From contig OY969916.1 of the NCBI GenBank assembly GCA_963704535.1, forward strand, positions 3,830,841 to 3,894,840: a stretch of 64,000 nucleotides of DNA. The letters run 5' to 3'. This document shows positions 38,184 through 61,942 of the stretch, piece after piece (the first letter of the stretch is position 1; every line of letters starts with the position of its first letter). Under the pieces are notes generated by a model. The model ran no database searches. It was not told where the DNA came from and worked only from the letters and a program-made list of their open reading frames with translations. The translations under genes were made by a program, and so were the position numbers. This DNA comes from an uncultured Chloroflexia bacterium (GTDB lineage: Bacteria > Chloroflexota > Chloroflexia > Chloroflexales > Roseiflexaceae).

Positions 38184-38229
38184 GAAAAAGGGGGTTTGAG
38201 GGGGCAGCCCCCTCAGTCTCCCCCACCCA
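38184..38229. repeat. Core palindrome of a REP/MITE-like repeat family (GGAAAAAGGGGGTTTGAGGGGGCAGCCCCCTCAGTCTCCCCC)
   Basis: The same ~45-bp GC-rich palindromic core recurs at 39014, 43105, 44187 and 61862. Confidence 0.6.
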
Positions 38230-38235
38230 CACGAG

Positions 38236-38958
38236 ATGCCGTCACTAAACACATTGATCCAGCGCCTGGACGTGACGTTCGCCGATCAGCGGCTCTTGCG
38301 GAGTGCGCTGGTGCATCGCTCGTTTGTACACGAACATCCCGATCAGGCGCTCGATCTCGTCGATAGTGAGCGGCTGGAGTTCCTCGGCGACGCGATCTTG
38401 AACTTCCTCACAGCCACGCTCCTGTTTGAGCGCTTCCCCGATCGTGGCGAAGGTGAGCTGACCGGCCTACGCTCGGCACTGGTGAAGACCAGCACACTGG
38501 CCGGCTTCGCCCGTGACCTTAACATCGGCGCCTATATTCAGCTCAGCAAAGGTGAGGAGCAGAGTGGCGCTCGTGAGCGCGCGGCCCTGCTGGCCGATAC
38601 GTTTGAAGCCTTACTCGCAGCGGTCTATCTAGATCGCGGTCTGGACGCCGCCCGCGCCTTCGTCTCGCCCTTTCTTGAGCACCAGATTGAGCGGATCACC
38701 ACCCACGGCCTGGCGCTTGACTACAAAAGCCGCCTCCAGGAGTGGATTCAGGCCGAGCGGAATATCACCCCGCGCTACCGGATCATTTCGGTTGTCGGCC
38801 CGGATCATCGGCGCGAGTTTACCGTCGAGGTACACGCCGGCGATGCGCTGCTGGGAAGCGGCCAAGGCGGGAGCAAGCAAGCCGCGACTCAGGCAGCCGC
38901 CCAGGCGGCGCTTGAGCAGCTCAACACAACCAGTACTCAGAGTGTTGGAGATGAGTGA
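38236..38958 (+). CDS. rnc: Ribonuclease III
   Basis: It has the RNase III signature ERLEFLGDA and a C-terminal dsRBD. It follows fabF, which is a conserved linkage. Confidence 0.9.
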   Translation: MPSLNTLIQRLDVTFADQRLLRSALVHRSFVHEHPDQALDLVDSERLEFLGDAILNFLTATLLFERFPDRGEGELTGLRSALVKTSTLAGFARDLNIGAYIQLSKGEEQSGARERAALLADTFEALLAAVYLDRGLDAARAFVSPFLEHQIERITTHGLALDYKSRLQEWIQAERNITPRYRIISVVGPDHRREFTVEVHAGDALLGSGQGGSKQAATQAAAQAALEQLNTTSTQSVGDE

Positions 38959-38974
38959 TTGAAGGTGGATGCTT

Positions 38975-39091
38975 AGACAAGGTTTCGGAAGATGCTGTTC
39001 GACTTTACAATGTGGGTGGGGGAGACTGAGGGGGCAGCCCCCTCAAACCCCCTTTTTCCAGAACTGTAAAGCACCAAGGAACCATGTCTTA
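38975..39091. repeat. MITE-like element (~117 bp) with terminal inverted repeats AGACAAGGTT / AACC(A/T)TGTCT and the palindromic core
   Basis: It has the TIRs, the central palindrome and a ttacaa/ttgtaaag sub-repeat. Its right end overlaps the start codon of the downstream reductase gene. Confidence 0.55.
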
Positions 39092-39933
39092 TGCGCGTAC
39101 TGATCACAGGAGGCTCCGGGTATCTCGGGTCCGAGATCGTCGGCCAGGCGCTAGCTGCGGGCTGGGAAGTCGTTGCCACGTACTTTTCGCGGCGCCCCAC
39201 GAGCCCTGGCGCGCAGTATCTGCCGTTGGATATTCGCGATGCGCCGGATGTCGAGCAGGCTTTCGCCGACATCCGTCCCGATATCGTCATTCATACGGCC
39301 TACCGCCAGGCTGGCCCCGACCTCTGGTCGGCGACCGTCGATGGGTCAAGCATCATCGCGCTAGCGGCGCGGCAGCTTGGCGCCAGCCTGATCCATCTCT
39401 CCAGCGATGTCATTTTCGATGGCGAGGGCCAGCGGTGGTATACCGAGCAGGATGATCCCCGCCCGATCACCCCGTACGGCGAGGCCAAGGTCGCCGCCGA
39501 GCACCGTGTTGCCGCCGCGCACCCAGGCGCGCTGATCGTCCGAACCTCGCTGATCTACGGCGGTGCCGAGCCTAGTAAGCACGAGCAATTGGTGCTCGAC
39601 GCCGCCGATGGCCACGTCGATCCGATCTTTTTCAGCGATGAGCTGCGCTGCCCGATCGCGGTCGGGGATCTGGCCGCAGCTCTGCTGGAGTTGGCGCCGC
39701 TGGATGTGTCCGGGCCATTGCACGTCGCCGGAGCCGAGGCCGCCAGCCGCTATGCGTTCGCGCAATTGGTGGCGGCCGCCCATGGTCGTTCGGCTGACCG
39801 GCTGCGTTCTGGGTTCAGCGCTGCAAGTGGCGTGCGCCGGCCACGCAATTGCGCCCTCGACAGCCGCAAGGCCCAGGCGATGCTGCGAACGCGCCTGCGC
39901 GGGGTGAGCGAAGTACTGAAACCTGACACATAG
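39091..39933 (+). CDS. NAD(P)-dependent sugar-nucleotide reductase/epimerase, RmlD-like (dTDP-4-dehydrorhamnose reductase family)
   Basis: It starts MRVLITGGSGYLGSEIV, a Rossmann GxxGxxG motif. The sequence ...IVIHTAY...Y..K matches the short-chain dehydrogenase/reductase family. Confidence 0.65.
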   Translation: MRVLITGGSGYLGSEIVGQALAAGWEVVATYFSRRPTSPGAQYLPLDIRDAPDVEQAFADIRPDIVIHTAYRQAGPDLWSATVDGSSIIALAARQLGASLIHLSSDVIFDGEGQRWYTEQDDPRPITPYGEAKVAAEHRVAAAHPGALIVRTSLIYGGAEPSKHEQLVLDAADGHVDPIFFSDELRCPIAVGDLAAALLELAPLDVSGPLHVAGAEAASRYAFAQLVAAAHGRSADRLRSGFSAASGVRRPRNCALDSRKAQAMLRTRLRGVSEVLKPDT

Positions 39934-39935
39934 AG

Positions 39936-41173: not shown

Positions 41174-43033
41174 ATGCGATTCACGCGCATCTCATCGCGG
41201 CGCGGCATTGGTCTGGCGCTGCTCCTTGCCCTGGTAGTTCCGATTCTCGTCGCCTGTGGTGGTGGCACCGGAGCTCAGCCGACGGCTGCTCCAGCCCAGC
41301 CGACAGCCGCCCCGGCCACTGAGCCGACAGCCGCCCCGGCCGCCGAGCCGACAGCCGCCCCGGCCGCCGAGCCAACAGCCGCTCCAGCCGCCGAGCCGAC
41401 AGCCGCCCCGGCAACCGGTGATGCGGGCGGCGTACTCAAGATCCTGTACTGGCAGGCGCCCACGATCCTGATGCCGCACCAGGGCCAGGGCACTAAGGAC
41501 TTCGATGTCGCCTCCCCGATCCTCGAGCCGCTGGCCCGCTACAACGAGAAGGGTGAGCCGATCCCGTACCTGGCCGAGGAGATCCCAACGCCTGAGAATG
41601 GCGGCGTCTCTGCCGACTCCACGACGGTGACGTGGAAGCTGAAACCGGGCCTCAAGTGGTCCGACGGCAGCGACTTCAGCGCCGACGACGTGGTCTTTAC
41701 CTGGGAGTTCTGCGCCGACTCGGCCACCGCCTGCACCACCCAGTCGTCCTTCCTGCCGATCAAGTCGGTTGAGGCCGTCGATGCCACCACCATCAAGATC
41801 ACATACAAGGAGCCGAACCCCGACTATCTGGTCTCGTTTGTCGGCCCTCAGGGTATGATCATCCAGCGTAAGCAGTTCGAAAGCTGCATCGGGGCGGCGG
41901 CGGCGACCTGCCCAGCCAACAACAGCCCGATCGGCACCGGACCCTACAAGCTGCAAGACTTCAAGCCCGGCGATACGGTGATCTACGCCAAGAACGAGAA
42001 CTACCGCGACGCTGCTAATGTCGCCTTCGATACGGTCGAGATCAAGGGCGGCGGCGATGCAGTCTCGGCGGCCCGCGCCGTCTGCGAGACCGGCGAGGTC
42101 GATTACGCCTGGAACCTCCAAGTTGAGAAGGCTGTGATCGAGCAGATCTTCACCGGCGGCAAGTGCGACTTCCTCACCGCCGGCTCGACCGGCATCGAAC
42201 GTATCGTGATCAATTTCGCCAACCCCGACGAGGCGTTGGGCGACAAGCGGGCCGAGCCGGATCAGCCCCACCCGATCCTGAGCGACCCCAAGGTTCGCCA
42301 GGCCCTCTCGCTGGCGATTGACCGCCAGACCATGGCCGATCAGGTCTGGGGCGTCGGCGGCAAGCCGACCTGTAACTCCGTTACCCAGCCGGCGGATATC
42401 AACTCGCCCAATACCGAGTGCCCCTACGACCCGGAGAAGGCCAAGCAGTTGCTCGAAGAGGCCGGTTGGGTCGATTCCGACGGCGATGGCATCCGCGAGA
42501 AGGACGGCAAGCCGTTCCAATTGCTGTACTCGACCTCGATCAACGCGCTGCGCCAGAAGGAGCAGGCGCTGGTGAAGGCCAACTGGGCAGCGGTCGGCAT
42601 CCAGGCCGAGCTGAAGGCGGTCGATGCGGGGGTGTTCTTTGCCAGTGACGAGGGCAACCCCGATACCTTCGGCCACTTCTTCGCCGATGTCCAGATGTAC
42701 ACCAACAGCCCGACTTCGCCGGACCCGACCACCTACTTCAACGACTTCACCTGTTCGCAGGTCGCGTCGAAGGAGAACGGCTGGAAACTCGGCAATAACG
42801 GCCGCTACTGCAGCAAGGAGTTCGACGCAGTCGTCGAGCAAATCAAGAAGGAGCTCGACCCTGTCAAGCGCAAAGCGCTCATGATCCAGGCCAACGACAT
42901 CCTGGTCAATGACGGGGCCATCCTACCGCTGATCGACCGCTCGACGCCCGAAGGCAAGTCCAAGGCGCTGACCGGGCCGACCGGCACCACGTTCGACTCG
43001 GTGCTCTGGAATATCGGCACCTGGAAGAAGTAG
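41174..43033 (+). CDS. ABC transporter substrate-binding lipoprotein, family 5 (peptide/nickel/oligosaccharide type)
   Basis: It has a lipoprotein signal (LLLALVVPILVACGGG), a Pro/Ala/Thr-rich repeat linker and an SBP_bac_5-like body. The track start at 41090 is probably over-extended. Confidence 0.85.
   Translation: MRFTRISSRRGIGLALLLALVVPILVACGGGTGAQPTAAPAQPTAAPATEPTAAPAAEPTAAPAAEPTAAPAAEPTAAPATGDAGGVLKILYWQAPTILMPHQGQGTKDFDVASPILEPLARYNEKGEPIPYLAEEIPTPENGGVSADSTTVTWKLKPGLKWSDGSDFSADDVVFTWEFCADSATACTTQSSFLPIKSVEAVDATTIKITYKEPNPDYLVSFVGPQGMIIQRKQFESCIGAAAATCPANNSPIGTGPYKLQDFKPGDTVIYAKNENYRDAANVAFDTVEIKGGGDAVSAARAVCETGEVDYAWNLQVEKAVIEQIFTGGKCDFLTAGSTGIERIVINFANPDEALGDKRAEPDQPHPILSDPKVRQALSLAIDRQTMADQVWGVGGKPTCNSVTQPADINSPNTECPYDPEKAKQLLEEAGWVDSDGDGIREKDGKPFQLLYSTSINALRQKEQALVKANWAAVGIQAELKAVDAGVFFASDEGNPDTFGHFFADVQMYTNSPTSPDPTTYFNDFTCSQVASKENGWKLGNNGRYCSKEFDAVVEQIKKELDPVKRKALMIQANDILVNDGAILPLIDRSTPEGKSKALTGPTGTTFDSVLWNIGTWKK
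41278..41412 (+). repeat. 21-bp tandem repeat (≈6 units) encoding (A)EPTAAP linker repeats
   Basis: The unit gccgagccgacagccgccccggcc is repeated. The antisense ORFs in the track are artefacts of it. Confidence 0.7.
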
Positions 43034-43039
43034 CAGACT

Positions 43040-43160
43040 GAGGGATTGGAGATTGGGGTGAGAGATGATCTCTCAATCTCCAATCTCCAATCACTAAGCA
43101 TTCCGTGGTGGAAGGGGGGTTTCTTGAGGGGAGCCCCTCAAAATCCCCCTTTTCAGACAT
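43040..43160. repeat. Degenerate copy of the REP/MITE-like repeat with an extra GATTGGAGATTGG/CAATCTCCAATC inverted repeat
   Basis: It has the core GGGGGGTTTCTTGAGGGGAGCCCCTCAAAATCCCCCTTTT and lies between the SBP and permease genes. Confidence 0.45.
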
Positions 43161-43182
43161 CTTCTAAAGGTTAGGACCGGCT

Positions 43183-44133
43183 ATGACACAATATCTGATC
43201 CGGCGGGTCTTGATCGCCATCCCGACGTTGCTGATCATCAGCTTCGTGATCTACGCCATCCTGGCGCTAGCCCCCGGCGACCCACTGGCCCAGTTCGCCG
43301 CCAACCCCGCCGTTCCACCTGCCGTTCGCGAGAATATCAAGCGCTCACTCGGCCTCGACCAGCCCTGGTACATCCGCTATGGCAAGTGGCTTACGTCGCT
43401 GGCCCAGGGTCAGTGGGGCTACTCCTTCGCCAGCAAGATCCCAGTCATCGACTTGATCAAGCAGCGTATGCCCCAAACCTTGATCGTCCTCGGTGTCGCC
43501 TACCTGATCGCCCTCCTGCTCGCTATCCCGATCGGCATCATCTCAGCGGTCAAGCAGTACTCGCTGTTCGATCAGGTCGCCACAACCTTCGCCTTTATCG
43601 GATTCTCGGTGCCCAACTTCTTCACCGGGGTGCTGCTGTTGCTGATCTTCAGCTACACGCTGAGATGGCTCCCCTCGATCTACGATACTCAGTTGAGCCG
43701 GCTGACGCTGGGCCAGCAGATTCAGCAGATGATCTTGCCAGTGACGGTACTGGCGCTTTCGCAGGCTGGCGGGATCACCCGCTTTATGCGCTCGGCGATG
43801 CTCGACAATTTGCCGCTCGATTACGTTCGCACTGCGCGGGCCAAGGGGCTGGCTGAGCGGATAGTAGTCATTCGCCATGTGCTGGCCAATAGCCTGATCC
43901 CGGTGATCACGCTGATTGCGCTGGGCATACCGGGGATCTTCGCCGGGGCGATCATCACCGAGCAGATCTTTCGGATCAACGGGCTGGGTGAGCTGCTCAT
44001 CCGCTCGATCCAGAACTCCGATACGCCAGTGGTGATGGCGCTGACGTTCATTTTCGCCTGTCTGGTGGTGCTGTTCAATCTGATTGCTGATATCCTCTAC
44101 GGCGTCCTCGACCCACGTATCCGCTATAGCTGA
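43183..44133 (+). CDS. ABC transporter permease, DppB/OppB-like
   Basis: It has six TM segments and an N-terminus typical of binding-protein-dependent permeases (RRVLIAIPTLLIISFVIYAI). Confidence 0.85.
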   Translation: MTQYLIRRVLIAIPTLLIISFVIYAILALAPGDPLAQFAANPAVPPAVRENIKRSLGLDQPWYIRYGKWLTSLAQGQWGYSFASKIPVIDLIKQRMPQTLIVLGVAYLIALLLAIPIGIISAVKQYSLFDQVATTFAFIGFSVPNFFTGVLLLLIFSYTLRWLPSIYDTQLSRLTLGQQIQQMILPVTVLALSQAGGITRFMRSAMLDNLPLDYVRTARAKGLAERIVVIRHVLANSLIPVITLIALGIPGIFAGAIITEQIFRINGLGELLIRSIQNSDTPVVMALTFIFACLVVLFNLIADILYGVLDPRIRYS

Positions 44134-44156
44134 TTGGGGATTGGAGATTGGCTACT

Positions 44157-44274
44157 AAGACAAGGTTCTTTGGAGCTTTACAGTTCTGAGAAAAAAGGGG
44201 TTTGCGGGGCAGCCCCCCTCAGTCTCCCCCACTCACATTGTAAAGTAGAATGGCGCCACCCGACACCTTGTCTA
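44157..44274. repeat. MITE-like element (full copy with TIRs AAGACAAGGTT / ACCTTGTCT)
   Basis: It lies between the two permease genes. The core is GAAAAAAGGGGTTTGCGGGGCAGCCCCCCTCAGTCTCCCCC. Confidence 0.55.
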
Positions 44275-44319
44275 ATCACCAATCGCTCATCACAAATCGC
44301 CCGGTAGAGAGAGTATAGT

Positions 44320-45278
44320 ATGGCTAAAGCAAATCCAGCAGTTGAGGCAGGTGCGTCATCGAATGCGCCGGCGATATTACGGGCAGGTGTCTTAGGGCCG
44401 CCGCGCACGCTATGGGGGGATGCCTGGCGCCGCTTCCGGCGGCATAAACTGGCCATGCTCGGCGCCACTATCCTAATCTTCTTCATCCTCTCCTCCCTGC
44501 TTGGCCCGCTGATCTATCGCGTCGATCGTGAAGCACTTGATTTCAGCGCCACCACCTCCGGCTCCTCCCTCAAGCATCCCATGGGCACCGATGACCTGGG
44601 CCGCGATATCCTGGCGCGCGTGCTCTTCGGCGGCCGTATCTCCCTCTCCGTCGGCATGGTCGCCATGCTCATCGCCATTACCGTCGGCACCACGATCGGC
44701 GCGGTGGCCGGCTTCTTCGGCGGCTGGATCGACAACCTGCTCATGCGCTTCACCGATATGTTCCTGGCGCTGCCGCAGCTTCCGCTGCTGCTGCTCACGA
44801 TCTATCTGTTCCGCGAGCCAGTCAAGAGGCTGCTCGGTCCCGAGACCGGCATCTTCGTGATCGTGGTGGGCATGCTCAGGGGTGTTGCAGTGGATGACGA
44901 TCGCGCGGATTGTGCGAGGCTCGTTCCTATCGCTGAAGCAGCGCGAGTTCGTCGAGGCGGCTACCTGCCTGGGCGTGCGGCGCGGCGCGATCATGTTCCG
45001 CCACATCCTGCCCAATGTGCTCAGCCCGATCCTGGTCGCGGCGACACTGGAGGTCGGCAACGCGATCATCGGCGAGTTCGACTCTGTCGTTCCTAGGGGT
45101 TGGCTTCCCGCCCGATACCCCGACCTGGGGGCGGCTGATCTTCGACGCCGGCAACTATATGAAGCAGGCGCCGCATATGGTGCTATGGCCCGGCGCGATG
45201 ATTTTCTTGACCGTGCTCAGCATCAACTACATGGGCGACGGCCTGCGCGATGCCCTTGATCCACGGTCGCGCCTCTAA
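44320..45278 (+). pseudogene. ABC transporter permease, DppC/OppC-like, interrupted by two apparent frameshifts (~44880 and ~45078)
   Basis: The three consecutive ORFs 44320.., 44882.. and 45015.. together form one DppC-like sequence (...IVVGML|WMTIARIVRGSFLSLKQ...AIIGE|STLSFLGVGFPPDTPTWG...). Confidence 0.7.
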
Positions 45279-45385
45279 CCACGCGCCGGCCGCACAGCCT
45301 TCACCACAAGCAGTGAAGCACAAAAGGAGCGCGGGGACTTCCCCGCGCTCCTTGCTTTCCACTCCACCGATTGAGAACCATCGCC

Positions 45386-46654: not shown

Positions 46655-49600
46655 CTACATCGACTGCGGCTGCTCCGGCTGCTCCAGCTGCTCCGGCTGC
46701 GTCACCGGGAGAATAAAACTAAACGTGCTGCCGACGCCCGATTCGCTCTGCACCCACATCTCGCCCCCATGCAGCTCGACAAACGACTTCGCGATCGAAA
46801 GCCCAAGGCCGGTGCCGCCCACTTCGTCGCGGAGCGGGTTGTCGGCGCGGTAGAAGCGGCGGAACAGGTGTTGCTGCTGCTCTGGCGAGATCCCGACCCC
46901 ATTGTCATCGACCTCGGCCTGGAGCAGACCGGCCGGGTTCACAAACGCCCGCAGTGTTACGCGGCCTTGCGGGTACGTGTACTTCACCGCATTCGAGACG
47001 ACGTTCAAGACGACCTGGGTGATCCGCCGTAGATCGGCGGTGATCTGAGGCAGCTCCTCTTTGATGTCGATCTGGACGTTGAGTGATTTTCGGTCGACCT
47101 CGGCACGCAGTGTTTGGAGCACGTCCTGGAAGACATTCTCGATGCTAACCTGCTCGAAACTGAGTTTGATCTTGTCGGCGTCGATACGTCCGATCTCCAG
47201 AATGTCGTTAATCAGATCCATCAGCCGGTTGGCATTATTCTTGACAACTCCCAGGAACGAGAGCTGCCCCTCGCCGATCGGGCCGGCCGCGCCCAGCAAC
47301 AACAGGTCCACATACCCCTTGATCGATGTGAGCGGCGTGCGTAGTTCGTGCGAGACGCTGGAGATAAAGTCGCGCTTGGCCCGATCTGCTTCGATCTCCC
47401 GTGTCACATCGCGAAGCACCGCCACACTCCCGTAGCGAACCCCATCCGGTCGGATCACCGCCGCGAAGTTCATCGCGATCGACTGCGTCGGGTTCGGGAT
47501 CTCCAGCATACCGACATGGCTCTTGCCCCGCTCGTCAAGCGCGCGCAGCCCATCATACAGCCCGGTGTGGATCAGTTCTGCTCGTCGAGTTGATGATCCC
47601 GGCTCGTGATACTCCTTCAGATGGCCCAGCGGCTGTTTCAACGCGAAGGATGCCGGGATACCCAGCACTTGCTCGGCGGCCGGGTTGAACAGCACGACGT
47701 GCTGCTGTTCGTCCAGCACGATCACACCTTCGGTCACGCTCTGGAGGATCGCCTGGCTCTTGCTGGTTTCCTCGCGCTGCTGCTCGTAGGCCTCGGCCAG
47801 CTGTGACGCCAGGTCGTTGATATACGAGTACAGTTCGGCGTTATGAATCACGATCGCGATCTCATTGGCGATCGTACTGAGGAGCTGCAACTGGGCCTCG
47901 CCGAAATAGTCGAGTTTCGGGCTCGACAGGATCAGCACGCCGAGCGGCTCATCTTTGGTGATCAGCGGGACGGCGATCACTGAGCGCACTTCGTCGGCGC
48001 GCCCCTCCTCGCGCAGCCAGCGCCCGTCGTCGCGGACATCGCCGATGTAGATGCCCTTCTCCTGGCTCAACACCCACCCGGCCAAACCTGATCCCTGTGA
48101 GAAGCTGATCGGGATGTTGGTCGACTCGACGGTGCCGTCGGCGGTGAGTACGGCGCGACAGATCAGTGTCCCGGTGCGCGGGTCGCGCAACATAATCGAG
48201 CCGCGCTTGACGCCGACGGAAAGGGAAGCCAGGCCAAGCGCCTTGGTCAGCGTCTCCTCCAGGTCCAGGTTCTCGGTCAGCTCCACGGTGATCTCGTGGA
48301 CCGCCTGGAGGCGTTCTTTCTCGGCCGAGAGCTGGATGTTGGCATCGGCCAGGGCGGCGGTTCGCTCGGCGACCCGGCGCTCCAACTCGGCCGCGTATTG
48401 CTGCTGCTGCTCGACCAGCCGCGCGTTGCGCAGCGCCTGCGCCGCCTGGCTCGCCAGCGCGAAGGCCAGTTGTGCATCCTCCTCATCATACGCGCCGATT
48501 GTGCTGCTGTCCACCGTCAACAGGCCGATCACCTCGTCGTCCAGCAGCAGTGGCGCGCCAATCCAGCCGTGGCAGTGATCGGTCCCTGCCAGCGGAATCC
48601 AGTACGGAGTGTCCTGGGCGTCGTCGAGCACCAGCGGCCGGCGTGTCTGGATGATATGCGCCATGTTGGCATCATCTTCCAGCTTGACGCTGAATTGTTC
48701 GATCTGGGCACGTACCGCTTCCTCGAAGCCGCGTGTCGCGGCGATACGTACGACATTGTCCTCACGCAGCATCAGTGAGGCGGTATCGTAGGGCACCACG
48801 CGCGCTAGCTGATCAAGAATCAGCGCCGTGATCTCGTCCGGTTTGAGGACGCTCGTCAGGGTTTGGGCCACTTCGCGCAGCGTATCGGCGACCCGCCGCC
48901 GCGTCTGCTCGCTCTGGAACAGGCGCGCGCTCTCCAGCGCCTGCCCACATTGGTTGGTCAAGATCGAGAGCAGCGAGATCTCGCGCTCCTGCCAGGTGTG
49001 GGGTCCCCGCGAGCCGAGCCAGATCGCCCCGATTGGCTGATCGTGTGATCCGATCACGGCGCCGAGCGCGCTCTTCAGGTGCATCTGTGTCCCCAGCGCT
49101 GACTCTTCGACCTCGGCCGCAATATTGTTGAAGACCAGCGGACGATCACTGGACAGCAAGCGCCGCGTCATCCCATTCGTGGCGATCTGGATGGTCCGGT
49201 CGGTCGTCTCGAGGTCCTCATTGTCGAGGATGATCTGCTGGGAGATGTTCAATTCTGTATCAAACAGGAACACCGCCGAGACATCGGCGCGCATGAGCTC
49301 CAGCGCGCTCGACGCCACAATTCCGAGAATTTCGCCCGTGTCGAGCGTCCCAGTCAGGGCCACGCTGATCTCGTGCAGTGCTGTGAGCTCCAGCACGCTC
49401 TGGCGCGTTTCGCCCAGTAAGCGCGCGTTCTCCAGCGCGATCGCGCCCCACGAGGCGATCGTCCCTAGCAGCCGGATGTCTTCCTGTGAGTAGGCCGTAT
49501 CGCGCTCGTAGTCCTCGATCCCAATCGCGCCGATGACTCGGTCAGCGGCGATCATGGGCACGCCTAGCCACGAGAGAGAACGGTCGCCGATCGGGGATAG

Positions 49601-52600: not shown

Positions 52601-55600
52601 CGGCGTATAGCTCTGCACCGCCAGTACCCCGACGACCTCGCCCTCGCCAACGAGCAGTGGTACGCCCAGCCACGAGGCCGACCTCCGCTCGACATTGCCG
52701 AAAGGTGCCGGTTGGAGGCCGTACGTCTCACCCTCGACTCGCAGGTCGCCAAACAAGAGCGGCTGGCGATGCGTGATAATCCATTCCACCAGGCTGCCCG
52801 AGGGCGGCGGCTCGCTATGCTGGCGGTAGGTGCGCTGCCCCTCATCCACCAGTAGCGCGCCGGTAAATTCATTCCGGTCGCTATGGTAGACAAAGCCGCA
52901 GAACGCGTCGATGGTCAGGAAGTCGGCCAGGCAGTCATAGATCTGGCCCAGGAGCCGCTCGATGTCGAGGGTCGAGCTAATAATAGTCCCGATCCGGTTA
53001 ATGACATCCAGCTCATTGATCCGCCGCTCACGCTCGTGGAACAGCCGTACGTTCTCCATCGCCACCGCGAGCTGATTGGCCAGCGTTGAGAGGAAGCGGG
53101 CGTCACGGTCGGTGAACGCATACGGCGCGAAGTTCTGGACCGAGAGCACGCCGATGACCTGGTTCTGGCTGCGCAGCGGGATGCCGATCCACGAGCGGAT
53201 CTGCTCGCCGAGCGTGACCGCCTGGACCGGGAGCCGATCCTCTTCCGCCAGGTAGTCGTGGATGTGGATGACCTCGCCTGAGTTGATCACCCAGCTCGTC
53301 AGGCCACTCTTCGGCAGTGTGGTCTTATGGCGTTTCGCCAGGATCTCGCCTTCACGCTTGAACAGCTCGAAGTTCAGCAACTCGCGCTGCGAATCATAGG
53401 ACGCCACATAGAAGAAGGACGGCGTCCCCATATAAGCCACGATCTCGTTATAAACGCGCTCCAGCAGGTCGTCCAGGTCAAGCGTCGATACCGTCGCAGC
53501 GCCGACCTGGAACAGCGCCGTCATCTGGTCGGCCTGGCTGCGGGCCTCGCTCAACAGCCGCGCGTTCTCAACTGCAATCGCGGCCTGGCTGGCAAAGATC
53601 TCGAGCGGCTCGGCCGAGCGGCGCGTTGGGCGCTGGTGGTCGTACGGGTCATCGACCGCCATCATACCGATCAGCTTGGCGCGGGTATTATAGAGCGGGA
53701 CGAACAAGGCATCGTCGAGCCCCCACTCGGGGCTCTGCGGCGATTTGGTCGTGCCGAGGTCCATACTGTCGCCCTGGTCGATCCCCACCACAATCTCGCG
53801 CATGATATCGCCGGGCACAAAGAAGCAGCGACCGAGCCGGAAGCGCTTATCCATAAAGCGGTGAGCCAACTCGACCGGGAATGGTGACTTCCGCCGGCGC
53901 TCGATCTCGGCCAGCGGCAGGCCCGCGCCGGTGATCGCGTACATCAGCAAAGCGTCGTCCAGATCGACGAGGTGGAAGATCACCGAGCGAAAGCGTGCCG
54001 TCTCGACCACACTGAACGCAATCTGCTCCAGCACATCCTCGAGCGAGCGGTCGGCGCGCAACGCCTGGCCGATGTCGAGCACCTCGTTCAGCATGCTGGC
54101 CCGCTGCTGAAGCAGGGCGCGCTGGCGGTACTGTTCGTTGTAGCGCTGGGTGTTGCCGATCGCCAGCGCGGCCTGGTCGGCTAGCGCGCGCACAAACTCA
54201 AGCGCATCGTGGTTGAATGAGCGTGGGATCTGGCTGTGCAGATTGACGACGCCGACAACCTCGGCCTCATAGAAGATCGGCACCGCCAGCACCGACGAGA
54301 TCATCGGCCCGATACTGCTCAGGCGATCGTCGCTCGCGACTTCGTCGACGAGAGCCGGCTCACCGCTTGCCATCGCCAATTCAGCCGTCGTTTTCCCGCT
54401 GCTGACGACCTGGTGGAGCAACTGCTCATAATCCGCCTCGTTGTAGCCGATCGCGGCGATCACCCGGATCGGCGCCTCCTTGCCGTCTTCATTTAAGAGC
54501 TGGCCGTTGGCCGTCGCAAGCAGGCGCGTCCCCTCGTCCTGGGCGAAAGCGCGCAGCGCCTCCTCGAAGGCCAGGCCCTCGCGCAGCGCGATATAGCCGA
54601 TCGTCGCCGGGGTCGCGCGCAGCGCCTCCTCCAGCGCAAAGCCAAGGATATGGCCAAGCGAGAGATTCGCGGTAAGCTGGCGGCTGATCCGCTGGAGCGC
54701 CGTCAACTGTTGAACACGGCTGCGCAGGTGGGCATCGGCCTGCTCGAAGCGCCGGACATTGGAGATCGCCTGGGCCGCCTGACCGGCGATAATCGTGAGA
54801 ATCCGTTCGTCCGCTACCGCGAAATGAGCGGGCCGATCGCTGAGCAATCCCAAGGTGCCGACGAGCTGATCGCCCACCTGGAGCGGCAAGCCAAGATAGC
54901 TCTGGACTGTTGACCCATCGGCGAGTTTCGAGAACAGGGGGCGCACCGGGGGGCGGCGGAAATCCGCCAGGCGTAACGCCCGCCGATGCCGCGCGATCCA
55001 GCCGGTCAGCCCATCGGCGATCTGGTAAGTCGGCATCTGCGCGTCATCGTAGCGAATGCCGCGTGTAAGCGCGCCGCGCAGGAGCTGCGACTCGGCGTCA
55101 TACAGACAGATCTCGGCCCCGACGAAGGGCACGAGTGACTGGACGCCCTCCACAATCGCTTCGAGCATCTCCTCCAGTGTCAGATCAGCTTCAAGTCGCC
55201 GGCTGATCGTCTGAAGCTTCTCCAGCTCACTCGCACGGCGCTGCTCGCTGATATACAGTTGCGCGTTGACGATCGTGGCGGCGACCTGGCTGGCCAGGGT
55301 CTGGGCCAGATTGACCTCTGCGCGGCTGAAACGGTGGCGTCGATCACCATAGCCGATACTCAGCAGTCCAACCGCGCGATCCTTGACCCTGAGCGCCAAC
55401 AGCAGCGCGCTACAGTAGCCAAACCGGCGCAGCACCTCGCTCCCCTCGTCGGTCTGCGGGGCGGCCGGGTCCGGCGCGAGCGCTAGTGTTTCGCCGGAAT
55501 GCAGCAGCTTCGCGAGCACACCATGGGCTTTCATATGATAGCGTGGCCCGCCCGTATCCTCGCGCCCATCGGCCGTATAGGAGGCCACCTCGCGGAGCAC

Positions 55601-56800
55601 TGCCGTGTTGTGTTGCTCACTCAGGTGCAGGATGCAACGATCCGCACTCATCGCCAGCGCGATATTCTCGGCCACACGCGTCAGCATCGGCTCGATCTGC
55701 AGCGTCGAGCTCAACACTTGTCCATTCTCATAAAGCACGAACAGCTCACGAGCCCGCTGCTGCTGCTGGGCAAAGAGCTGTGCGTTGCGGATGACCAACG
55801 CGGCCGGCTTGGCGAACGCCTCGATCAGCAGCTTATCTGACTCACTGAAACGCGCCTCTTCCCGATCATGGGTCAGCGCCAGCACGCCGATCAACTCATC
55901 CTGAACCAGCAGCGGCACGCCAATACCGGCATGCAGCGTTTCCTCGGCGAAATGGGGCAACTGGTAGGGATAGTGCTGGTAGTCCTCGATCAACAGTGTC
56001 GTACGCTGTAGCGCGACCTGGCCGGACAATCCCTGCCCGCGCGTCAGCCGTGTGCCGACATAATCGCGGTTGAGCCCGTGCCCCACAATCAGCTCCAGGT
56101 TCCCATCCTCGACTGCGGTGTAGATAGCGCCGCCGGAGGCCCCGCACAGCTCGATCGCCCGCTCAAGCAGTGACCGGAGCATTTCATGGAGATTAATCTG
56201 GCCGGTCAGATCGAAATTCAGCGCCGACGCGGCCGCGAGCGTGGCGCGTTCGCGCTGGCGCTCGGCGTCACGCTGCTGCATGCTGATCAGTAATTCGATC
56301 TGGAACCGGAGCGCCTGGAGGAAGGGTGGGGTAAGCGACGACTCGGCGGTGGGGGGGACACCAAGCAATAGTGCCCCGATCGGCTGGTCATCGCGGTGCA
56401 GCGGGATCTCGATCGCATCTGCCGGAAGGCCGTTGCCGTTACGCGCCAACATCTGCTGGCGCAGCTCGTCGTCAAGCCCCCAGCCTGCCGATACGCTCGT
56501 ATCAGCGCTGGTATGGAGCAGGAAGAGTCCCCATGGACATGGAAGACGGGCGCAACCAAGATCAGCGATGCGTTGCGCGAGGCCCTGTGCATCGTGAATA
56601 GTTGCGCTGTCTCTCCCATAGATCGCCAGCTCGGTCAGAAACTCCCAGGCCCGAACCAGCGATGACTCTACTGTTGTCGTGTCCATATCCAGGGACTTGC
56701 TCCTTCCAGGGATCGGTTGATGCGAACCGTCGCTGGATGGTGGTACGTTGGTGTGAACGTCGTAGGAGCTGAGAACCACAGCCCATTGCCACGTCCCCAC
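46655..56800 (-). CDS. Giant multi-GAF sensor histidine kinase (3381 aa; ~16 tandem GAF domains, one PAS, HisKA, HATPase_c)
   Basis: The C-terminus has PAS (ILQSVTEGVIVLDEQ...), an H-box (SHELRTPLTSIKGY), an N/G1 box (DDNGVGIS) and a G2 box (GGTGLGLSIAK). The GAF inter-domain linker (...NARLFEERERRIxEL) recurs about 16 times. An alternative start lies at 56686. Confidence 0.85.
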   Translation of the reverse strand: MGTWQWAVVLSSYDVHTNVPPSSDGSHQPIPGRSKSLDMDTTTVESSLVRAWEFLTELAIYGRDSATIHDAQGLAQRIADLGCARLPCPWGLFLLHTSADTSVSAGWGLDDELRQQMLARNGNGLPADAIEIPLHRDDQPIGALLLGVPPTAESSLTPPFLQALRFQIELLISMQQRDAERQRERATLAAASALNFDLTGQINLHEMLRSLLERAIELCGASGGAIYTAVEDGNLELIVGHGLNRDYVGTRLTRGQGLSGQVALQRTTLLIEDYQHYPYQLPHFAEETLHAGIGVPLLVQDELIGVLALTHDREEARFSESDKLLIEAFAKPAALVIRNAQLFAQQQQRARELFVLYENGQVLSSTLQIEPMLTRVAENIALAMSADRCILHLSEQHNTAVLREVASYTADGREDTGGPRYHMKAHGVLAKLLHSGETLALAPDPAAPQTDEGSEVLRRFGYCSALLLALRVKDRAVGLLSIGYGDRRHRFSRAEVNLAQTLASQVAATIVNAQLYISEQRRASELEKLQTISRRLEADLTLEEMLEAIVEGVQSLVPFVGAEICLYDAESQLLRGALTRGIRYDDAQMPTYQIADGLTGWIARHRRALRLADFRRPPVRPLFSKLADGSTVQSYLGLPLQVGDQLVGTLGLLSDRPAHFAVADERILTIIAGQAAQAISNVRRFEQADAHLRSRVQQLTALQRISRQLTANLSLGHILGFALEEALRATPATIGYIALREGLAFEEALRAFAQDEGTRLLATANGQLLNEDGKEAPIRVIAAIGYNEADYEQLLHQVVSSGKTTAELAMASGEPALVDEVASDDRLSSIGPMISSVLAVPIFYEAEVVGVVNLHSQIPRSFNHDALEFVRALADQAALAIGNTQRYNEQYRQRALLQQRASMLNEVLDIGQALRADRSLEDVLEQIAFSVVETARFRSVIFHLVDLDDALLMYAITGAGLPLAEIERRRKSPFPVELAHRFMDKRFRLGRCFFVPGDIMREIVVGIDQGDSMDLGTTKSPQSPEWGLDDALFVPLYNTRAKLIGMMAVDDPYDHQRPTRRSAEPLEIFASQAAIAVENARLLSEARSQADQMTALFQVGAATVSTLDLDDLLERVYNEIVAYMGTPSFFYVASYDSQRELLNFELFKREGEILAKRHKTTLPKSGLTSWVINSGEVIHIHDYLAEEDRLPVQAVTLGEQIRSWIGIPLRSQNQVIGVLSVQNFAPYAFTDRDARFLSTLANQLAVAMENVRLFHERERRINELDVINRIGTIISSTLDIERLLGQIYDCLADFLTIDAFCGFVYHSDRNEFTGALLVDEGQRTYRQHSEPPPSGSLVEWIITHRQPLLFGDLRVEGETYGLQPAPFGNVERRSASWLGVPLLVGEGEVVGVLAVQSYTPNRYSERELAFMTTVASQVALGAQNARLFAERERQIAELDALGRIGRVTNSTLELRPMVEGIDHVLREVLGAGGVSMTLLNRERQTTRVLVIDGTEALLDTERPLAEDFSEGTLAGWIIRNSRPLRLGDIKQEISAYDNLQVMFISSQEDSITRSYLGIPILAYDGTPIGSLAVTSHRAYVFNARDEGFLVSVGAQVSLGVQNARLFARAQEQVDQLGLLNRVSSVAVATLEITEILQAATEAMARATGADQAGMFLYDRATGFATLAAEYISTDLTASLQIPLQDNPLTAWLDKHQGPLISFDVLADSRFIQSQEVLRTLDVRSVAMIPLIVGGSIVGTIQLDSVGRQRNFSPQEIELCQTIANQAATAIEKARLFEEIQRSATALQRKVGELETLLEAARVLSSSLKPREVLDMLMEVVGRQLIVNTVALWTITSDDVLVPAAMLGIPEEVARELRPPVGQGLTGQVAATGRPLIVADVAHEGGSLYPEFNRVHQYTSFMGVPVVYRERTIGVLSVMTIYQRDFSADEVTLLAGMADQAAMALENARLFEERERRISELTTLNHISQEISATLEQDELLTALHQGISEVLNTANSFIALYDRETRRLSFPVCWVDGVPIRDDEEIVIDDGAGLVNRVIMERRPLLLRSQQEVDAISTGLPVLGERQISSWLGVPIIRGDQVLGILNVQSYEPNAYDEDDLRFLATVASQAATAIANAWLFDERERRLREVIAIKDIGSAVTSTLDLQDVLERLHSELGRVIDVSTSMIGLYDARTDVIWFPVFYDQGQRLSFTPTPLQFGTNGWVIRNRQTLLLDTIEQADQMGLDVRSGRIGPENQFEQSFLVVPIISGNDVLGVINLQSYEQHAFSQDDLRFVSTVASQAAIAINNARLFQERGRRIEELATFNEIGQELSAATRYDDLIELLYRQTSRLLDTNNFYVALYDERRGEISFPLQYLRGQRITVDPVLLTNSPTAYVIRSREPLLLQGPQREAEIQARDLSPIGDRSLSWLGVPMIAADRVIGAIGIEDYERDTAYSQEDIRLLGTIASWGAIALENARLLGETRQSVLELTALHEISVALTGTLDTGEILGIVASSALELMRADVSAVFLFDTELNISQQIILDNEDLETTDRTIQIATNGMTRRLLSSDRPLVFNNIAAEVEESALGTQMHLKSALGAVIGSHDQPIGAIWLGSRGPHTWQEREISLLSILTNQCGQALESARLFQSEQTRRRVADTLREVAQTLTSVLKPDEITALILDQLARVVPYDTASLMLREDNVVRIAATRGFEEAVRAQIEQFSVKLEDDANMAHIIQTRRPLVLDDAQDTPYWIPLAGTDHCHGWIGAPLLLDDEVIGLLTVDSSTIGAYDEEDAQLAFALASQAAQALRNARLVEQQQQYAAELERRVAERTAALADANIQLSAEKERLQAVHEITVELTENLDLEETLTKALGLASLSVGVKRGSIMLRDPRTGTLICRAVLTADGTVESTNIPISFSQGSGLAGWVLSQEKGIYIGDVRDDGRWLREEGRADEVRSVIAVPLITKDEPLGVLILSSPKLDYFGEAQLQLLSTIANEIAIVIHNAELYSYINDLASQLAEAYEQQREETSKSQAILQSVTEGVIVLDEQQHVVLFNPAAEQVLGIPASFALKQPLGHLKEYHEPGSSTRRAELIHTGLYDGLRALDERGKSHVGMLEIPNPTQSIAMNFAAVIRPDGVRYGSVAVLRDVTREIEADRAKRDFISSVSHELRTPLTSIKGYVDLLLLGAAGPIGEGQLSFLGVVKNNANRLMDLINDILEIGRIDADKIKLSFEQVSIENVFQDVLQTLRAEVDRKSLNVQIDIKEELPQITADLRRITQVVLNVVSNAVKYTYPQGRVTLRAFVNPAGLLQAEVDDNGVGISPEQQQHLFRRFYRADNPLRDEVGGTGLGLSIAKSFVELHGGEMWVQSESGVGSTFSFILPVTQPEQLEQPEQPQSM

Positions 56801-56856: not shown

Positions 56857-57801
56857 TTACGCTCGCCCATAGCTAACATGGCTCTTGCGGCCCAGCTCAC
56901 GTGCCTCGGCCAGGGCCTTTTGGCGGGCATCCTCAGCAGTTTCACTGAGTTCGCGGATGTCATAGAATGGTCCGTCTTCGCTGGACAGCACGCCGATCGA
57001 CAGCGACATCAGCGGAACCCGGCGCTGGATGCCCTGCTCATCCGTTGATCATAATACCGCCTGCCGCCGATCCTTGTAATTGTAGTGCAGGCCGATCTCG
57101 GCATCGAAACGATCACGCAGCCGCTCACAGATCGCGCGCAGATGTTCCGGCGTCGATGTGACCACAAAGTCCGGGCCGACGACCATCTGGCCGATGAAAT
57201 CATCGGAGCCGCCCAGCTCATTGACCACCTCATTCAGCAGCAGAGCCGTGAACTTGAGCACATCTTCGCCGACCACCGCCCCATACGTCTGGGTGAAGGT
57301 CTCAAACCCATTGATATGGGCCTGGGCCATCGCCCAGCCGGTGCTCGAAAGCATCTGGCGATACTGGTCGTTGATCAGTTCAGCCGTCGGCAGATTGGTC
57401 ACCGGGTGGGCCAGGTTCTTCTGGCGGGCGCGGTCAAGCGCCCCCTTGACGATCGTATGAACCTCTTCGATATCGAACGGTTTGACGATGTAATACTCCG
57501 CCTGGACTTCACCAAGGCCCTTGAGCCTGTCTTGTTTCTCACCCCGTGCAGTCAGAAAGATGATCGGAATATGCCGCGTACGTGCGCTATGCCGAAGCGA
57601 CTTGCCGATCTCATACCCCTCCATATCAGGCAGATTGACATCCAGCAGCGCGAGATTCGGCGGAGTCTTACGGCACATTTCGAGCGCGATCTGTCCGCGC
57701 ATCGCCGTCAGCACCTCATATCCCTGAGAGGTGAAATAGATCTTGAGCAGGCTTGAGATGTCGGGGGCGTCTTCAACAACAAGAATCTTTTCCTTGCTCA
57801 C
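56857..57801 (-). CDS. Response-regulator receiver fused to a degenerate GGDEF domain (VGPDF in place of GG[DE]EF), with an in-frame TGA at complement(57046..57048)
   Basis: The REC region is ILVVEDAPD...LALLDVNLPDMEG...YIVKP. The GGDEF-like region is INGFETFTQTYGAVVGEDVL...GQMVVGPDFVVT. After the TGA, the same frame continues ...RVPLMSLSIGVLS...AEDARQKALAEARELGRKSHV, a GGDEF C-terminal consensus, to a TAA at 56857. Confidence 0.55.
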
Positions 57802-57813
57802 AGGGCTATCCTC

Positions 57814-59503: not shown

Positions 59504-60037
59504 TCAAGAATCCCTTGTGCCAGGTGGCAGCAGGGACTGATCGCTCTTGCGACCCCAGCATGGTGGACATTTCTCGATGATGTAGATGAACTGACCTTTG
59601 CGCTCCTCAACTCGCGTGGGCTGGTCGCTGAAGCGGTCAAACGTCTGTGCGGTCGCGTTGAGCACGATCTTCATCTTCATCGTCATGGGCATGAGTTTAA
59701 GCGCTAGGTCGGCCATGCCGAGCAGCGGCCCAAACTCCTTGAGGCCCAAGTTGAAGGCGTAGCGGCCGGCGCGCAGCTCCATGCCGCGCGCTCCACGCGG
59801 ACCATACATGGTCTCTGTGGACTGTGAGATGGTGGACAGGTCCACGAAGGGGAACTCACGTTTCAGGTTGCTGGCGGGGTAGTTGTTGACCAGGTGGCGT
59901 GCGCCGGCTAGGTTCAACAACGCGTTCACCCCATTGCGACCCATGACGTCCTCAAGGCTGATCAGGTACAAGCGCCCAATCAGGTTGGGATAGAATCGCG
60001 GTTCAAGTTCGTTCGCGTTGCCGCGCTCGTCTGGCAT
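59504..60037 (-). CDS. V4R-domain protein (4-vinyl-reductase-like small-molecule-binding domain)
   Basis: It has a C-terminal CPPCWG motif and a ~177-aa size. The start is taken at the internal Met (MPDERG...), and the track start at 60133 is less likely. Confidence 0.45.
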   Translation of the reverse strand: MPDERGNANELEPRFYPNLIGRLYLISLEDVMGRNGVNALLNLAGARHLVNNYPASNLKREFPFVDLSTISQSTETMYGPRGARGMELRAGRYAFNLGLKEFGPLLGMADLALKLMPMTMKMKIVLNATAQTFDRFSDQPTRVEERKGQFIYIIEKCPPCWGRKSDQSLLPPGTRDS

Positions 60038-60274
60038 TGCCCGGCTCCTTACGGGTCTATGGCTGGAATGCAGGCTGAAATCTACGGCCCAGAAAGCTTT
60101 GCTCATTTTACACGATGGTGTAGCGGTCGTCAACAGCGGGGGGGGGACTTCAGGGGGGAGTCCGGCTAGTACTTATCGTTCCGGGTGGGTTGGACCCGGT
60201 GTTCGCAAAGCTGATATGATATAGGACTTCCAGGCTATGGTCATCAACTTGGAAAACGATATAATCGAGGCCGA

Positions 60275-61732
60275 TTGAATTGTGTTCCTGGGATCGATCT
60301 CATGTCTCTCAATAGTCCTTCCACGCGCGAGCATACTATCAGGGGTAGCGCACTCCTGGCCGAATTGACGTTGGATCGTTTCATGGTCGGGCTGGCGGCA
60401 CTGCTTGTGTTTGCCACCGCACTCTGCATGGGCGTGCAGAGCGATACATGGTGGCAGGTGCGAACCGGCCAGTGGATCGTGCAGCGCGGTTACATCCCGA
60501 CGACTGATCCATTCAGCTCGACGGTGTACGGCAGGTACTGGCCAAACCACGAATGGCTCGCGCAGGTTATCTTCTATATCTGCTACACGTTTGGCGGATT
60601 GCTGCTGCTACTCGTCACCTGCACCGCCCTCGTCGCCCTGACGTGGTGGGGCGTGTACCGGCTCTGCGATGGTCCTCCGCGCGTGCGGGCGCTGGCGGTG
60701 CTGCTGGGCGTCGCGGCGCAGGCGGTGGTCTGGAGCGCGCGGCCGCATCTCTTCTCGCTTGCCTTCCTGGTCGTCACCCTGCTGCTGCTGCCCGATCGAC
60801 GGCGTCACTGGCTGTACCCGCCGTTGTTTCTGCTGTGGGCCAATATCCACGCCGGCGTAGCGTTCGGCGGCGTTGTGCTGTTTCTGGCGTTTGTGGTCGC
60901 GCTGGTCCACGATCGCCGGCAGAGCCGCCACTGGCTGGCGGTGGGTGTTGTGAGCGGCCTCGCGACGCTGCTGAACCCGCTTGGTCCTAGCCTGTGGACG
61001 TATGTGCTCGGCTCGTTGAGCGATGTGACGCGAACCTACTTACAGGAGTGGCAGCCGCCGAATCTGAGCTGGCCATCGAGCTATCCGTTTTTTGTCCTGG
61101 TGGCCATCAGCGTGGTTTCGGTGCTGCGCGCACGTAGAACCTGGAGCGGCCAGCGTGACTGGACGCTGCTGCTGCTGGCGCTACTGTTTGCGATGATGGG
61201 CTTCCGCTCGATCCGGCACACGGCCTTTTTCGCTGTCGTCGCCGCGCCGCTGATAGCGCGCCAGTTCGCCACGCTCCCGCTCAGTACGCGGCGGGCGACG
61301 TCGCTGGGCGCGCTGCATCTGGTGGCGCTGGCGGGGCTGGCGTGCGGGAGCCTCTTCGTGGTCCGCCAGACGTGGGCGAGCGTGCCGGAGCAGCCCTTGC
61401 CGCCGGGCGTGGTCACGGCGGTGCGGCGCTGTGAGGGAACGCTCTTCAATACCTATGATACCGGCGGGCCGCTGCTCTGGCTGGTCCCCGAGCGGGCCGT
61501 CTTTATCGATAATCGGCAGGACCCGTACCCGACCGAGCTGCTGCTCCAGGCCGCTGTCGCCGAGCAGAGCGGCGAGTACCGGGATTTGTTCGCGAAGTAC
61601 CAGGTCGCCTGTGCGCTGGTGCCGTCGGATCAGCCGATCTACAAGCGCCTCAGGACCGATGGCTGGGAGGAGCTATACTTCGATGCTAAATTTGCTGTGC
61701 TGCAACGAGGTAGCAAAGCGGCGGGGATGTAA
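60275..61732 (+). CDS. Polytopic integral membrane protein (≥10 TM), possibly a GT-C-type glycosyltransferase or membrane polymerase
   Basis: It has many hydrophobic helices and a conserved-looking periplasmic loop (WWQVRTGQWIVQRGYIPTTDPFS). It has no soluble domains. Confidence 0.45.
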   Translation: MNCVPGIDLMSLNSPSTREHTIRGSALLAELTLDRFMVGLAALLVFATALCMGVQSDTWWQVRTGQWIVQRGYIPTTDPFSSTVYGRYWPNHEWLAQVIFYICYTFGGLLLLLVTCTALVALTWWGVYRLCDGPPRVRALAVLLGVAAQAVVWSARPHLFSLAFLVVTLLLLPDRRRHWLYPPLFLLWANIHAGVAFGGVVLFLAFVVALVHDRRQSRHWLAVGVVSGLATLLNPLGPSLWTYVLGSLSDVTRTYLQEWQPPNLSWPSSYPFFVLVAISVVSVLRARRTWSGQRDWTLLLLALLFAMMGFRSIRHTAFFAVVAAPLIARQFATLPLSTRRATSLGALHLVALAGLACGSLFVVRQTWASVPEQPLPPGVVTAVRRCEGTLFNTYDTGGPLLWLVPERAVFIDNRQDPYPTELLLQAAVAEQSGEYRDLFAKYQVACALVPSDQPIYKRLRTDGWEELYFDAKFAVLQRGSKAAGM

Positions 61733-61824
61733 CGACCATGGTCGTACCATTACACCATCGATGAACGTTTTATATACGAGAGCTATTCTGGGATTTAAAT
61801 CTATACATCTTTATTAGGTTGTCA

Positions 61825-61942
61825 GGCAAGGTTTCGGGCGGCGCCATTCTCCTTTATACTGTGAGTGGGAGAGACTGAGGGGGCTGCCCCCTCAAACCCC
61901 CTTTTTCCCAGAATTGCAAAGCTCCCAAGAACCTTGTCTTAC
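61825..61942. repeat. MITE-like element (full copy)
   Basis: It has the TIRs GGCAAGGTTT / AACCTTGTCTTA and the core GGGAGAGACTGAGGGGGCTGCCCCCTCAAACCCCCTTTTTCC. An AGGAGG RBS lies immediately downstream. Confidence 0.55.

Follow-up and report, generated by a model that had tools for sequence, protein, structure and literature searches.

A likely miniature inverted-repeat transposable element family in intergenic spacers of a Roseiflexaceae-like Chloroflexota genome

Within a stretch of 64,000 nucleotides (nt) from an 11.26-Mb contig of an uncultured Chloroflexia bacterium (the window, hereafter), a GC-rich palindromic repeat recurs in the spacers between unrelated genes, and the question that this locus raises is how it came to be there. 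[quoted passage not shown] We consider it likely that they represent a lineage-specific, non-autonomous DNA transposon, that is, a MITE, of a Roseiflexaceae-like Chloroflexota genome. The MITE-like half of the earlier description is supported by terminal inverted repeats, TTA flanks on two of the three full copies, lack of coding capacity, at least three further loci, and absence from the orthologous spacers of relatives. Membership among the REPs was not upheld, as a GTAG or CGTC tag is missing and the window ORFs scanned showed no RAYT; the term may still describe the core-only copy of 49 nt.

Repeat finding, self-BLAST, and an nhmmer profile built on the three long copies agreed on the content of the window: three full elements, one core-only copy, and one diverged relative (Table 1). 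All five annotated sites exist at the coordinates given; among them, the 44-kb core is an indel variant (GAGGGGGGCTGCCCCGC) and the 43-kb hairpin (GGAAGGGGGGTTTCTTGAGGGGAGCCCCTCAAAATCCCCCTTTTC and its conserved flanks) belongs to a diverged sister subfamily, which makes four copies and one variant. The three copies that had been placed in larger units with terminal inverted repeats are indeed so embedded, in units of 113-114 bp that share 82-87% identity pairwise by self-BLAST and repeat finding. Chance alone would give 0.03 occurrences of the central motif GAGGGGGCWGCCCCCTC in the window, which has three; for the variant arm GAGGGGGCWGCCCCCTCAGTCTCCCCC, with up to one mismatch allowed, three are observed and 0 expected; and the first 35 kb of the window contain no comparable element. 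The perfect 43-nt palindrome previously given, AAAAAGGGGGTTTGAGGGGGCWGCCCCCTCAAACCCCCTTTTT, is absent from the window even when three mismatches are permitted. The real core is asymmetric, a 49-nt GC-rich hairpin of the form GGGGG-AGACT-GAGGGGGC-W-GCCCCCTC-AAA-CCCCC-TTTTT.

The full unit consists of an inverted repeat GACAAGGTT, a left arm, the core, a right arm, and an inverted repeat AACCTTGTC. Every one of the three full copies has, at each end, a terminal inverted repeat of the AGACAAGGTT type, 9-11 bp long and with zero to two mismatches. The 39-kb copy begins with GACAAGGTT and ends with AACCATGTC, and between its arms the core hairpin is followed by TTTTT; the left inverted repeat of the 61-kb copy is mutated to GGCAAGG. 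The core-only 38-kb copy, which has neither arms nor terminal inverted repeats, matches the core of the 39-kb copy at 98% identity and that of the 61-kb copy at 96%. Six-frame translations of the element yielded short peptides only, and it has no coding capacity. A length inside the class range of ~50-300 bp, the absence of transposase coding, terminal inverted repeats, and dispersed copies are the features of a MITE seen here.

The flanks of the full copies, said earlier to show no clear target-site duplications, do carry candidate ones: TTA/TAA triplets beside two of the three. These two have a direct TTA on both sides when read in element orientation, and the third has TCA on one side and TTA on the other, with two of three bases agreeing. 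Peptides from two further loci (P0121 and P0123, described below) require T-N-A beside one element end. TGC was also considered as the duplication for the 39-kb copy and was rejected, since it fits that copy alone and not the other two. The combination of inverted repeats and a 3-bp TTA flank is indicative of a DDE enzyme of cut-and-paste type, as in IS5 or PIF/Harbinger; a 3-bp TAA/TTA duplication is the signature of the PIF/Harbinger-Tourist group (PMC2836001). Judged from its putative 3-bp TWA target, the element is probably a DDE-type MITE in the style of IS5/PIF-Harbinger.

Table 1 Copies of the repeat family in the window and the triplets beside the full copies.
Feature	Coordinates	Strand	Remarks
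Full element, 39-kb copy	38976-39088	+	113 bp; nhmmer E = 7e-40
Full element, 44-kb copy	44159-44272	-	114 bp; nhmmer E = 2e-41
Full element, 61-kb copy	61825-61938	+	114 bp; nhmmer E = 1e-40
Core-only copy, 38 kb	38183-38231	-	49 nt; nhmmer E = 1.4e-13, model positions 39-86 only
Diverged sister-subfamily hairpin, 43 kb	43105-43169	+	GGAAGGGGGGTTTCTTGAGGGGAGCCCCTCAAAATCCCCCTTTTC and conserved flanks; nhmmer E = 0.0055
TTA flank, left of 39-kb copy	38973-38975	+	Putative target-site duplication, read from sequence
TTA flank, right of 39-kb copy	39089-39091	+	Final A is the A of the rmlD-like ATG
TAA flank (+ strand; TTA in element orientation) of 44-kb copy	44156-44158	-	Same triplet as 44273-44275
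TAA flank (+ strand), second flank of 44-kb copy	44273-44275	-	
Flanks of 61-kb copy	TCA 61822-61824, TTA 61939-61941	+	

Presence/absence polymorphism at orthologous sites was seen at fabF|rnc (P0002, L005, and L006) and at rnc|rmlD (L005). The RNase III of the window is identical to a protein encoded on a contig of 11,260,833 bp, and its relatives that carry names are Roseiflexaceae and Kouleothrix metagenome-assembled genomes, at 62-71% identity. On the contig with an RNase III 88% identical to that of the window (P0002), the fabF|rnc spacer is 7 nt long, compared with 60 nt in the window. In L005, a relative at 80% identity that keeps the fabF-rnc-rmlD gene order, the fabF|rnc and rnc|rmlD spacers are both unrelated sequence without the element. 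In a ~90%-identical relative (L006, positions 166-248), the fabF|rnc spacer opens with the same TAACCAG and then continues into a different, near-perfect palindrome of ~70 nt, which is built of GAGTTATGAGTT-type repeats and is unrelated to the window element; that contig breaks 3' of rnc at ...GTAAAAGGGGG. The closest relative, in the same 90% cluster, has spacers of 61 nt and 184 nt according to its gene coordinates, which are all that is available for it. Different relatives thus carry different hairpins at the fabF|rnc junction, which in a third measures just 7 nt.

When the 39-kb element and one TTA were deleted in silico, TGA-ttgaaggtggatgcTT-ATG remained, a 15-nt rnc-rmlD junction. The restored site reads GAAGGTGGATGCTTATG... 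and contains GGTGGA, a sequence of Shine-Dalgarno type, with 5 nt between it and the ATG of MRVLITGGSG; this well-spaced GGTGGA indicates that the insertion parted the rmlD-like gene from its ribosome-binding site. At the right end of the same copy (39070-39093), CCAAGGAACC is found where other copies have CCAAAGAACC or CCCAAGAACC, which gives AAGGA 10 nt before the rmlD-like ATG in place of AAAGA or CAAGA. This difference, which rests on one base, is suggestive of a possible replacement ribosome-binding site acquired as a later adaptation.

Because gene callers sometimes run open reading frames (ORFs) through repeats, a protein database can be used to find copies of the element. Six-frame translation of the element against such a database identified three proteins from the window's own contig (P0121, P0123, and P0124), among them a tail-tube-like protein that has the element as its C-terminus (P0123) and an aminoacyl-tRNA-synthetase fragment (P0124). 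All three match the window only across the element, with 57-81% identity by tblastn, and so represent other loci. At least three further loci on the 11.26-Mb contig is a weak lower bound, and with it the proposal of a dispersed family, as opposed to a set of purely local copies, stands. Outside the host contig, copies were found on at least three metagenome contigs. One contig from ENA (L003) carries the left arm and core; another (L004) carries the core and left arm at 977-1040 and, on the same contig as this main-family copy, a sister-subfamily hairpin at 533-582 that matches the 43-kb variant including its flanks. A further copy (P0126), on a JGI contig, came from a phmmer search that ran one 39-aa frame exhaustively. 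The left-arm and core copies on the two ENA contigs derive from the assembly of short metagenome reads, and could be chimeras joined at the repeat. Pattern scans of species-representative genome contigs had no stretch of the element among the matches listed, which is not a clean negative; a metagenome pattern scan returned only one unrelated 21-mer coincidence in AT-rich DNA; and neither a viral-sequence scan nor a plasmid blastn search found an element copy. For annotation, the consequence of such copies is that gene callers extend or invent ORFs over the element (P0121-P0124 and P0126).

Pfam gives the gene order around the window copies as fabF, rnc, a RmlD-like reductase, a HEAT-repeat protein, an SBP_bac_5 binding protein, two ATP-binding cassette (ABC) permeases, and a DUF11 protein, in agreement with the gene identities first assigned; the 485-aa protein 5' of the 61-kb copy has several hydrophobic segments. 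The copies had been placed between convergent or tandem genes, of which only the second applies, as all five sites lie between co-directional genes on the + strand and none between convergent ones. By our own count from the gene calls, the pre-insertion intergenic share of the region from 36.8 to 64 kb was only ~7%, and that all five copies are nevertheless intergenic argues for selection or targeting. The 38-kb core-only copy fills most of the 60-nt fabF|rnc spacer, from 8 nt past the fabF stop to 4 nt before the rnc ATG, and on the + strand it presents A5 and then the hairpin, with no T-tract behind it. The 39-kb copy is located between the stop of rnc (38958) and the start of the rmlD-like gene (39091), the 43-kb hairpin in the spacer between the binding-protein gene and the first permease gene with TTTT behind it on the + strand, the 44-kb copy in reverse orientation between the two permease genes, and the 61-kb copy 90 nt past the stop of the membrane-protein gene and 6 nt before the ribosome-binding site AGGAGG of the DUF11 gene. 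Two copies were said to overlap a ribosome-binding site or start region; the 39-kb copy has a flanking TTA that shares the A of the rmlD-like ATG, and the 38-kb and 61-kb copies stop short by the distances just given.

An older GATTGG/CCAATC hairpin has the 44-kb copy inserted in its loop, and the reconstructed empty site folds as a hairpin. The older hairpin (44131-44155 with 44276-44300) belongs to a second palindrome family of heptamer repeats, GATTGGA/GATTGGG ... CCAATCT, also represented at 43038-43098, where it occupies the start of the spacer between the binding-protein and permease genes and folds at -35 kcal/mol (z = -7.3). On the metagenome contig L003, GGATTGGGA and GGTCAGG-type repeats follow the element and resemble these heptamer repeats. 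The second ABC permease gene (44320-45275) is split over three frames that match BPD_transp_1 model positions 1-56, 62-124, and 125-183, and is either a pseudogene or the product of long-read assembly indel errors; if the latter, the G/C homopolymer lengths in the repeat cores may be unreliable too. No ATPase genes lie downstream of it.

At the level of structure, the arms are imperfectly complementary and each full unit is predicted to fold as one long hairpin (-40 to -48 kcal/mol), with values of -46 kcal/mol (z = -3.1) for the 39-kb copy and -30 kcal/mol (z = -3.0) for the 43-kb hairpin. No compensatory change was found in the arms, for which the covariation term was positive, and selection on RNA structure in the arms was rejected on this ground. 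The Rfam scan of the window gave no matches at gathering score, and at E <= 1 the sole match was a sub-threshold microRNA model on the neighboring GATTGG hairpin. The lack of arm covariation and of an Rfam match together argue for a palindrome at the DNA level and against a selected RNA.

The T-tract reported after one orientation is confirmed: the core hairpin, with a predicted fold of ~-27 to -28 kcal/mol, is followed by T5. A native terminator nearby (45324-45353) folds at -30 kcal/mol and has a TTTTGTGCTT tail. From the sequence, orientation-dependent termination, or stabilization of 3' ends or RNA, by the core hairpin and T5 is plausible, and the hairpin directly 5' of rnc could be an RNase III substrate. 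The terminating orientation is that of the copy following the binding-protein gene, where it makes sense, of the copy in the former rnc-rmlD junction, and of the copy in the DUF11 leader; two copies have the non-terminating orientation, and the positions reveal no tidy relation of orientation to function. The rule that the T-tract orientation is present only where termination would be harmless was considered and is refuted by the 39-kb copy, in what was a 15-nt junction, and by the 61-kb copy, in the DUF11 5' leader.

In the mechanism that we propose, a full-length insertion sequence (IS) elsewhere in the genome, with ends GACAAGGTTTCGG, would supply a DDE transposase in trans, which would cut at the inverted repeats, paste the unit into a T-W-A target, and duplicate 3 bp. 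Insertions would survive in intergenic DNA only and could lengthen very short operon junctions. Once an element was inserted, its central hairpin would be transcribed; in the orientation followed by T5 it would resemble native intrinsic terminators and may attenuate read-through, and in the opposite orientation it could act as a stable stem only. The window itself contains an IS5-like element (29788-30802) with HTH_Tnp_4 and DDE_Tnp_4 domains and a second IS5-like copy (5859-8207) that is interrupted by an IS701-like element. The 3-bp duplications of these two copies, AGT and CAT, indicate that this enzyme class is active in the genome. The element at 29788-30802 was provisionally rejected as the parent of the MITE, as its ends, AGACATTATCAAGGTT, have only AGACA and CAAGGTT in common with those of the MITE and align no better than shuffles.

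Several observations weigh against this account. TTA could belong to the inverted repeat as its outermost bases, inherited with a central mismatch that is fixed, rather than be a target duplication; one of the three full copies is flanked by TCA and TTA; and the spacers obtained from relatives include no exact empty site. No autonomous IS with matching ends is present among the IS5-like, IS5/DUF4096, and IS701-like elements of the window, and full copies that are only 82-87% identical give no sign of recent activity. The copy number is known as a lower bound only, and the genome-contig scans gave no stretch of the element among the matches listed. With respect to termination, a consensus terminator scan did not call the element copies, and the location of the terminating-orientation 39-kb copy inside a former operon junction argues against strong termination. 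Finally, cut-and-paste movement of a MITE leaves both the core-only copy and the copies consisting of left arm and core unaccounted for.

From the core-only and sister-subfamily copies it is clear that the central hairpin also stands alone, as a module of its own. This is the starting point for a further interpretation that we regard as unlikely, namely that the 49-nt hairpin is an independently spreading REP-like module, possibly handled by an HUH enzyme, that was captured in a DDE-type MITE, so that two systems would move one portable terminator-like stem. Short junctions such as fabF|rnc would then be repeatedly colonized by different palindrome families through nested accretion, each newcomer inserting into its predecessor or next to it, with some palindromes kept as RNase III or terminator substrates.

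Quite unlikely, in our judgment, is the alternative in which the 49-nt hairpin is itself the mobile or selected unit, REP-like and moved by an HUH tyrosine transposase (RAYT or TIRYT) that acts on single-stranded hairpins, and the 114-bp form is composite and secondary. The core-only copy has no inverted repeats or visible duplication, the sister hairpin subfamily occurs without arms, and the L003 and L004 copies stop at the core edge, although these two may be assembly chimeras. The core is near-invariant in five of six copies and is conserved above the arms (87% versus 78%, p ~0.04, among the three full copies). Its GGGGAGAC fits GGGGWSAS, the motif of the inverted repeats flanking TIRYT genes (PMC3733652); with a chance match estimated at ~2% per element, this resemblance is a lead only. 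Neither foot of the core has a GTAG or CGTC tag, however, and a Pfam scan of window ORFs, which was not exhaustive, detected no tyrosine transposase. The three full copies, moreover, have classical inverted repeats and TTA flanks, which are not made by HUH elements.

That the repeats are host regulatory hairpins, terminators or stems that stabilize messenger RNA (mRNA), and were spread or homogenized by recombination or gene conversion and not by transposition, appears very improbable. Strictly intergenic copies, a conserved core, a hairpin and T5 like those of native terminators, and a variant located after the solute-binding-protein gene of an ABC operon, the classical place for an attenuating stem, would all suit this explanation. 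It is at odds with a similarity that covers ~114 bp, including inverted repeats and TTA flanks, and is common to unrelated loci; with relatives whose corresponding sites lack the element or hold other palindromes; with arms that show no compensatory change; and with the one insertion that cut a gene off from its Shine-Dalgarno sequence, an outcome more like damage than design. An origin by local duplication, or as an assembly artefact of this region alone, as four to five copies inside 24 kb and nearby permease frameshifts that could be long-read indel errors might suggest, deserves almost no credence, as it is refuted by the copies at other loci of the 11.26-Mb contig and in independent metagenomes, and the copies differ by 13-18% and have unrelated flanking genes.

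Bacterial MITEs are well known, but descriptions of one from Roseiflexaceae-type Chloroflexota are apparently lacking, to judge by our literature searches. The family itself is hitherto undescribed but belongs to a familiar class of selfish DNA and does not amount to a new type of system; its less ordinary aspects are the modular core and the repeated colonization of the same operon junctions by different palindromes. The family is a marker for strain-level or species-level genome comparison in this group, and it shows tiny operon junctions growing by nested palindromic insertions. If the hairpin terminates or stabilizes transcripts, its copies would rewire the expression of fabF-rnc-rmlD and of the ABC transporter operon.

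The remainder of the window has features of its own. Positions 1-35000 form a lower-GC (42-57%) island packed with mobile elements, and all MITE copies lie outside it. The IS701-family element that splits the IS5-like copy at 5859-8207 (6134-7462, 1329 bp) has a 99.85%-identical twin at 18093-19421, and another IS701-like transposase is encoded at 22589-23992. The island also contains an IS110 transposase (11502-12917), an IS5/DUF4096 element with GGCTCTTTCTG ends (13815-14783), a serine recombinase (2451-4094), a tyrosine integrase (16536-17501), and a NACHT NTPase (14770-16155), as well as two pairs of inverted duplications of ~90% identity that carry Band_7/SPFH-domain genes (1122-2458 versus 31794-33128, and 30901-31778 versus 34112-34992). 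Outside the island, the solute-binding protein has near its N-terminus a linker rich in Pro/Ala/Glu/Thr, which is encoded by 24-nt tandem repeats at 41270-41417; P0121, a spurious protein of a different locus in the same genome, is antisense to a similar linker that adjoins another MITE copy. A 3381-aa sensor histidine kinase with at least 15 GAF domains and with PAS, HisKA, and HATPase_c domains is encoded on the - strand at 46655-56800, and a response-regulator gene (57049-57801, - strand) comes after it; the kinase explains the 516-nt periodic repeats that appear in the repeat search.

Among known systems, Tourist-type MITEs moved by PIF/Harbinger transposases (e.g., rice mPing) and bacterial MITEs derived from IS5 are likewise small and non-coding, with short inverted repeats and a 3-bp TTA/TAA flank (PMC2836001). 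Porphyromonas gingivalis BrickBuilt and Neisseria ATR are examples of bacterial MITEs derived from the IS5 family, and BrickBuilt insertions are, as for the window element, intergenic only (PMC4596501). The likeness to IS5/PIF extends to the presence in the same window of an IS5-like DDE_Tnp_4 transposon with 3-bp duplications. In contrast to MITEs in general, which are usually AT-rich, the window element is GC-rich centrally, and its center is also a free-standing hairpin; no sequence similarity to any described MITE family was found.

The Correia/NEMIS elements of Neisseria and the ERIC/IRU elements of enterobacteria are also palindromic MITEs of ~100-150 bp that form long RNA hairpins between co-transcribed genes. 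Orientation-dependent effects on mRNA stability and processing are documented for both families, and Correia elements have a TA duplication, IHF sites, and promoters. The window element is unrelated to them in sequence and belongs to another host phylum.

REPs are defined by a GTAG (or CGTC) tag at the foot of a palindrome of 20-40 nt (PMC3733652). REP/BIME, REPIN (RAYT), and TIRtron (TIRYT) repeats are likewise GC-rich extragenic hairpins between operon genes; the core-only 38-kb copy resembles a REP singlet, and the window core has a GGGGWSAS-like motif as in TIRtron repeats (PMC3733652). Unlike REPs and REPINs, the window element has no GTAG/CGTC tag, no RAYT was seen among the window ORFs scanned, and the full copies have inverted repeats, a 3-bp flank, and one central hairpin instead of two inverted REPs. 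With intrinsic terminators the comparison is mixed: the core stem is broken by a 5x3 internal loop and its T-run is only five long, but it is likewise a GC-rich stem (~-27 kcal/mol) followed directly by TTTTT in one orientation.

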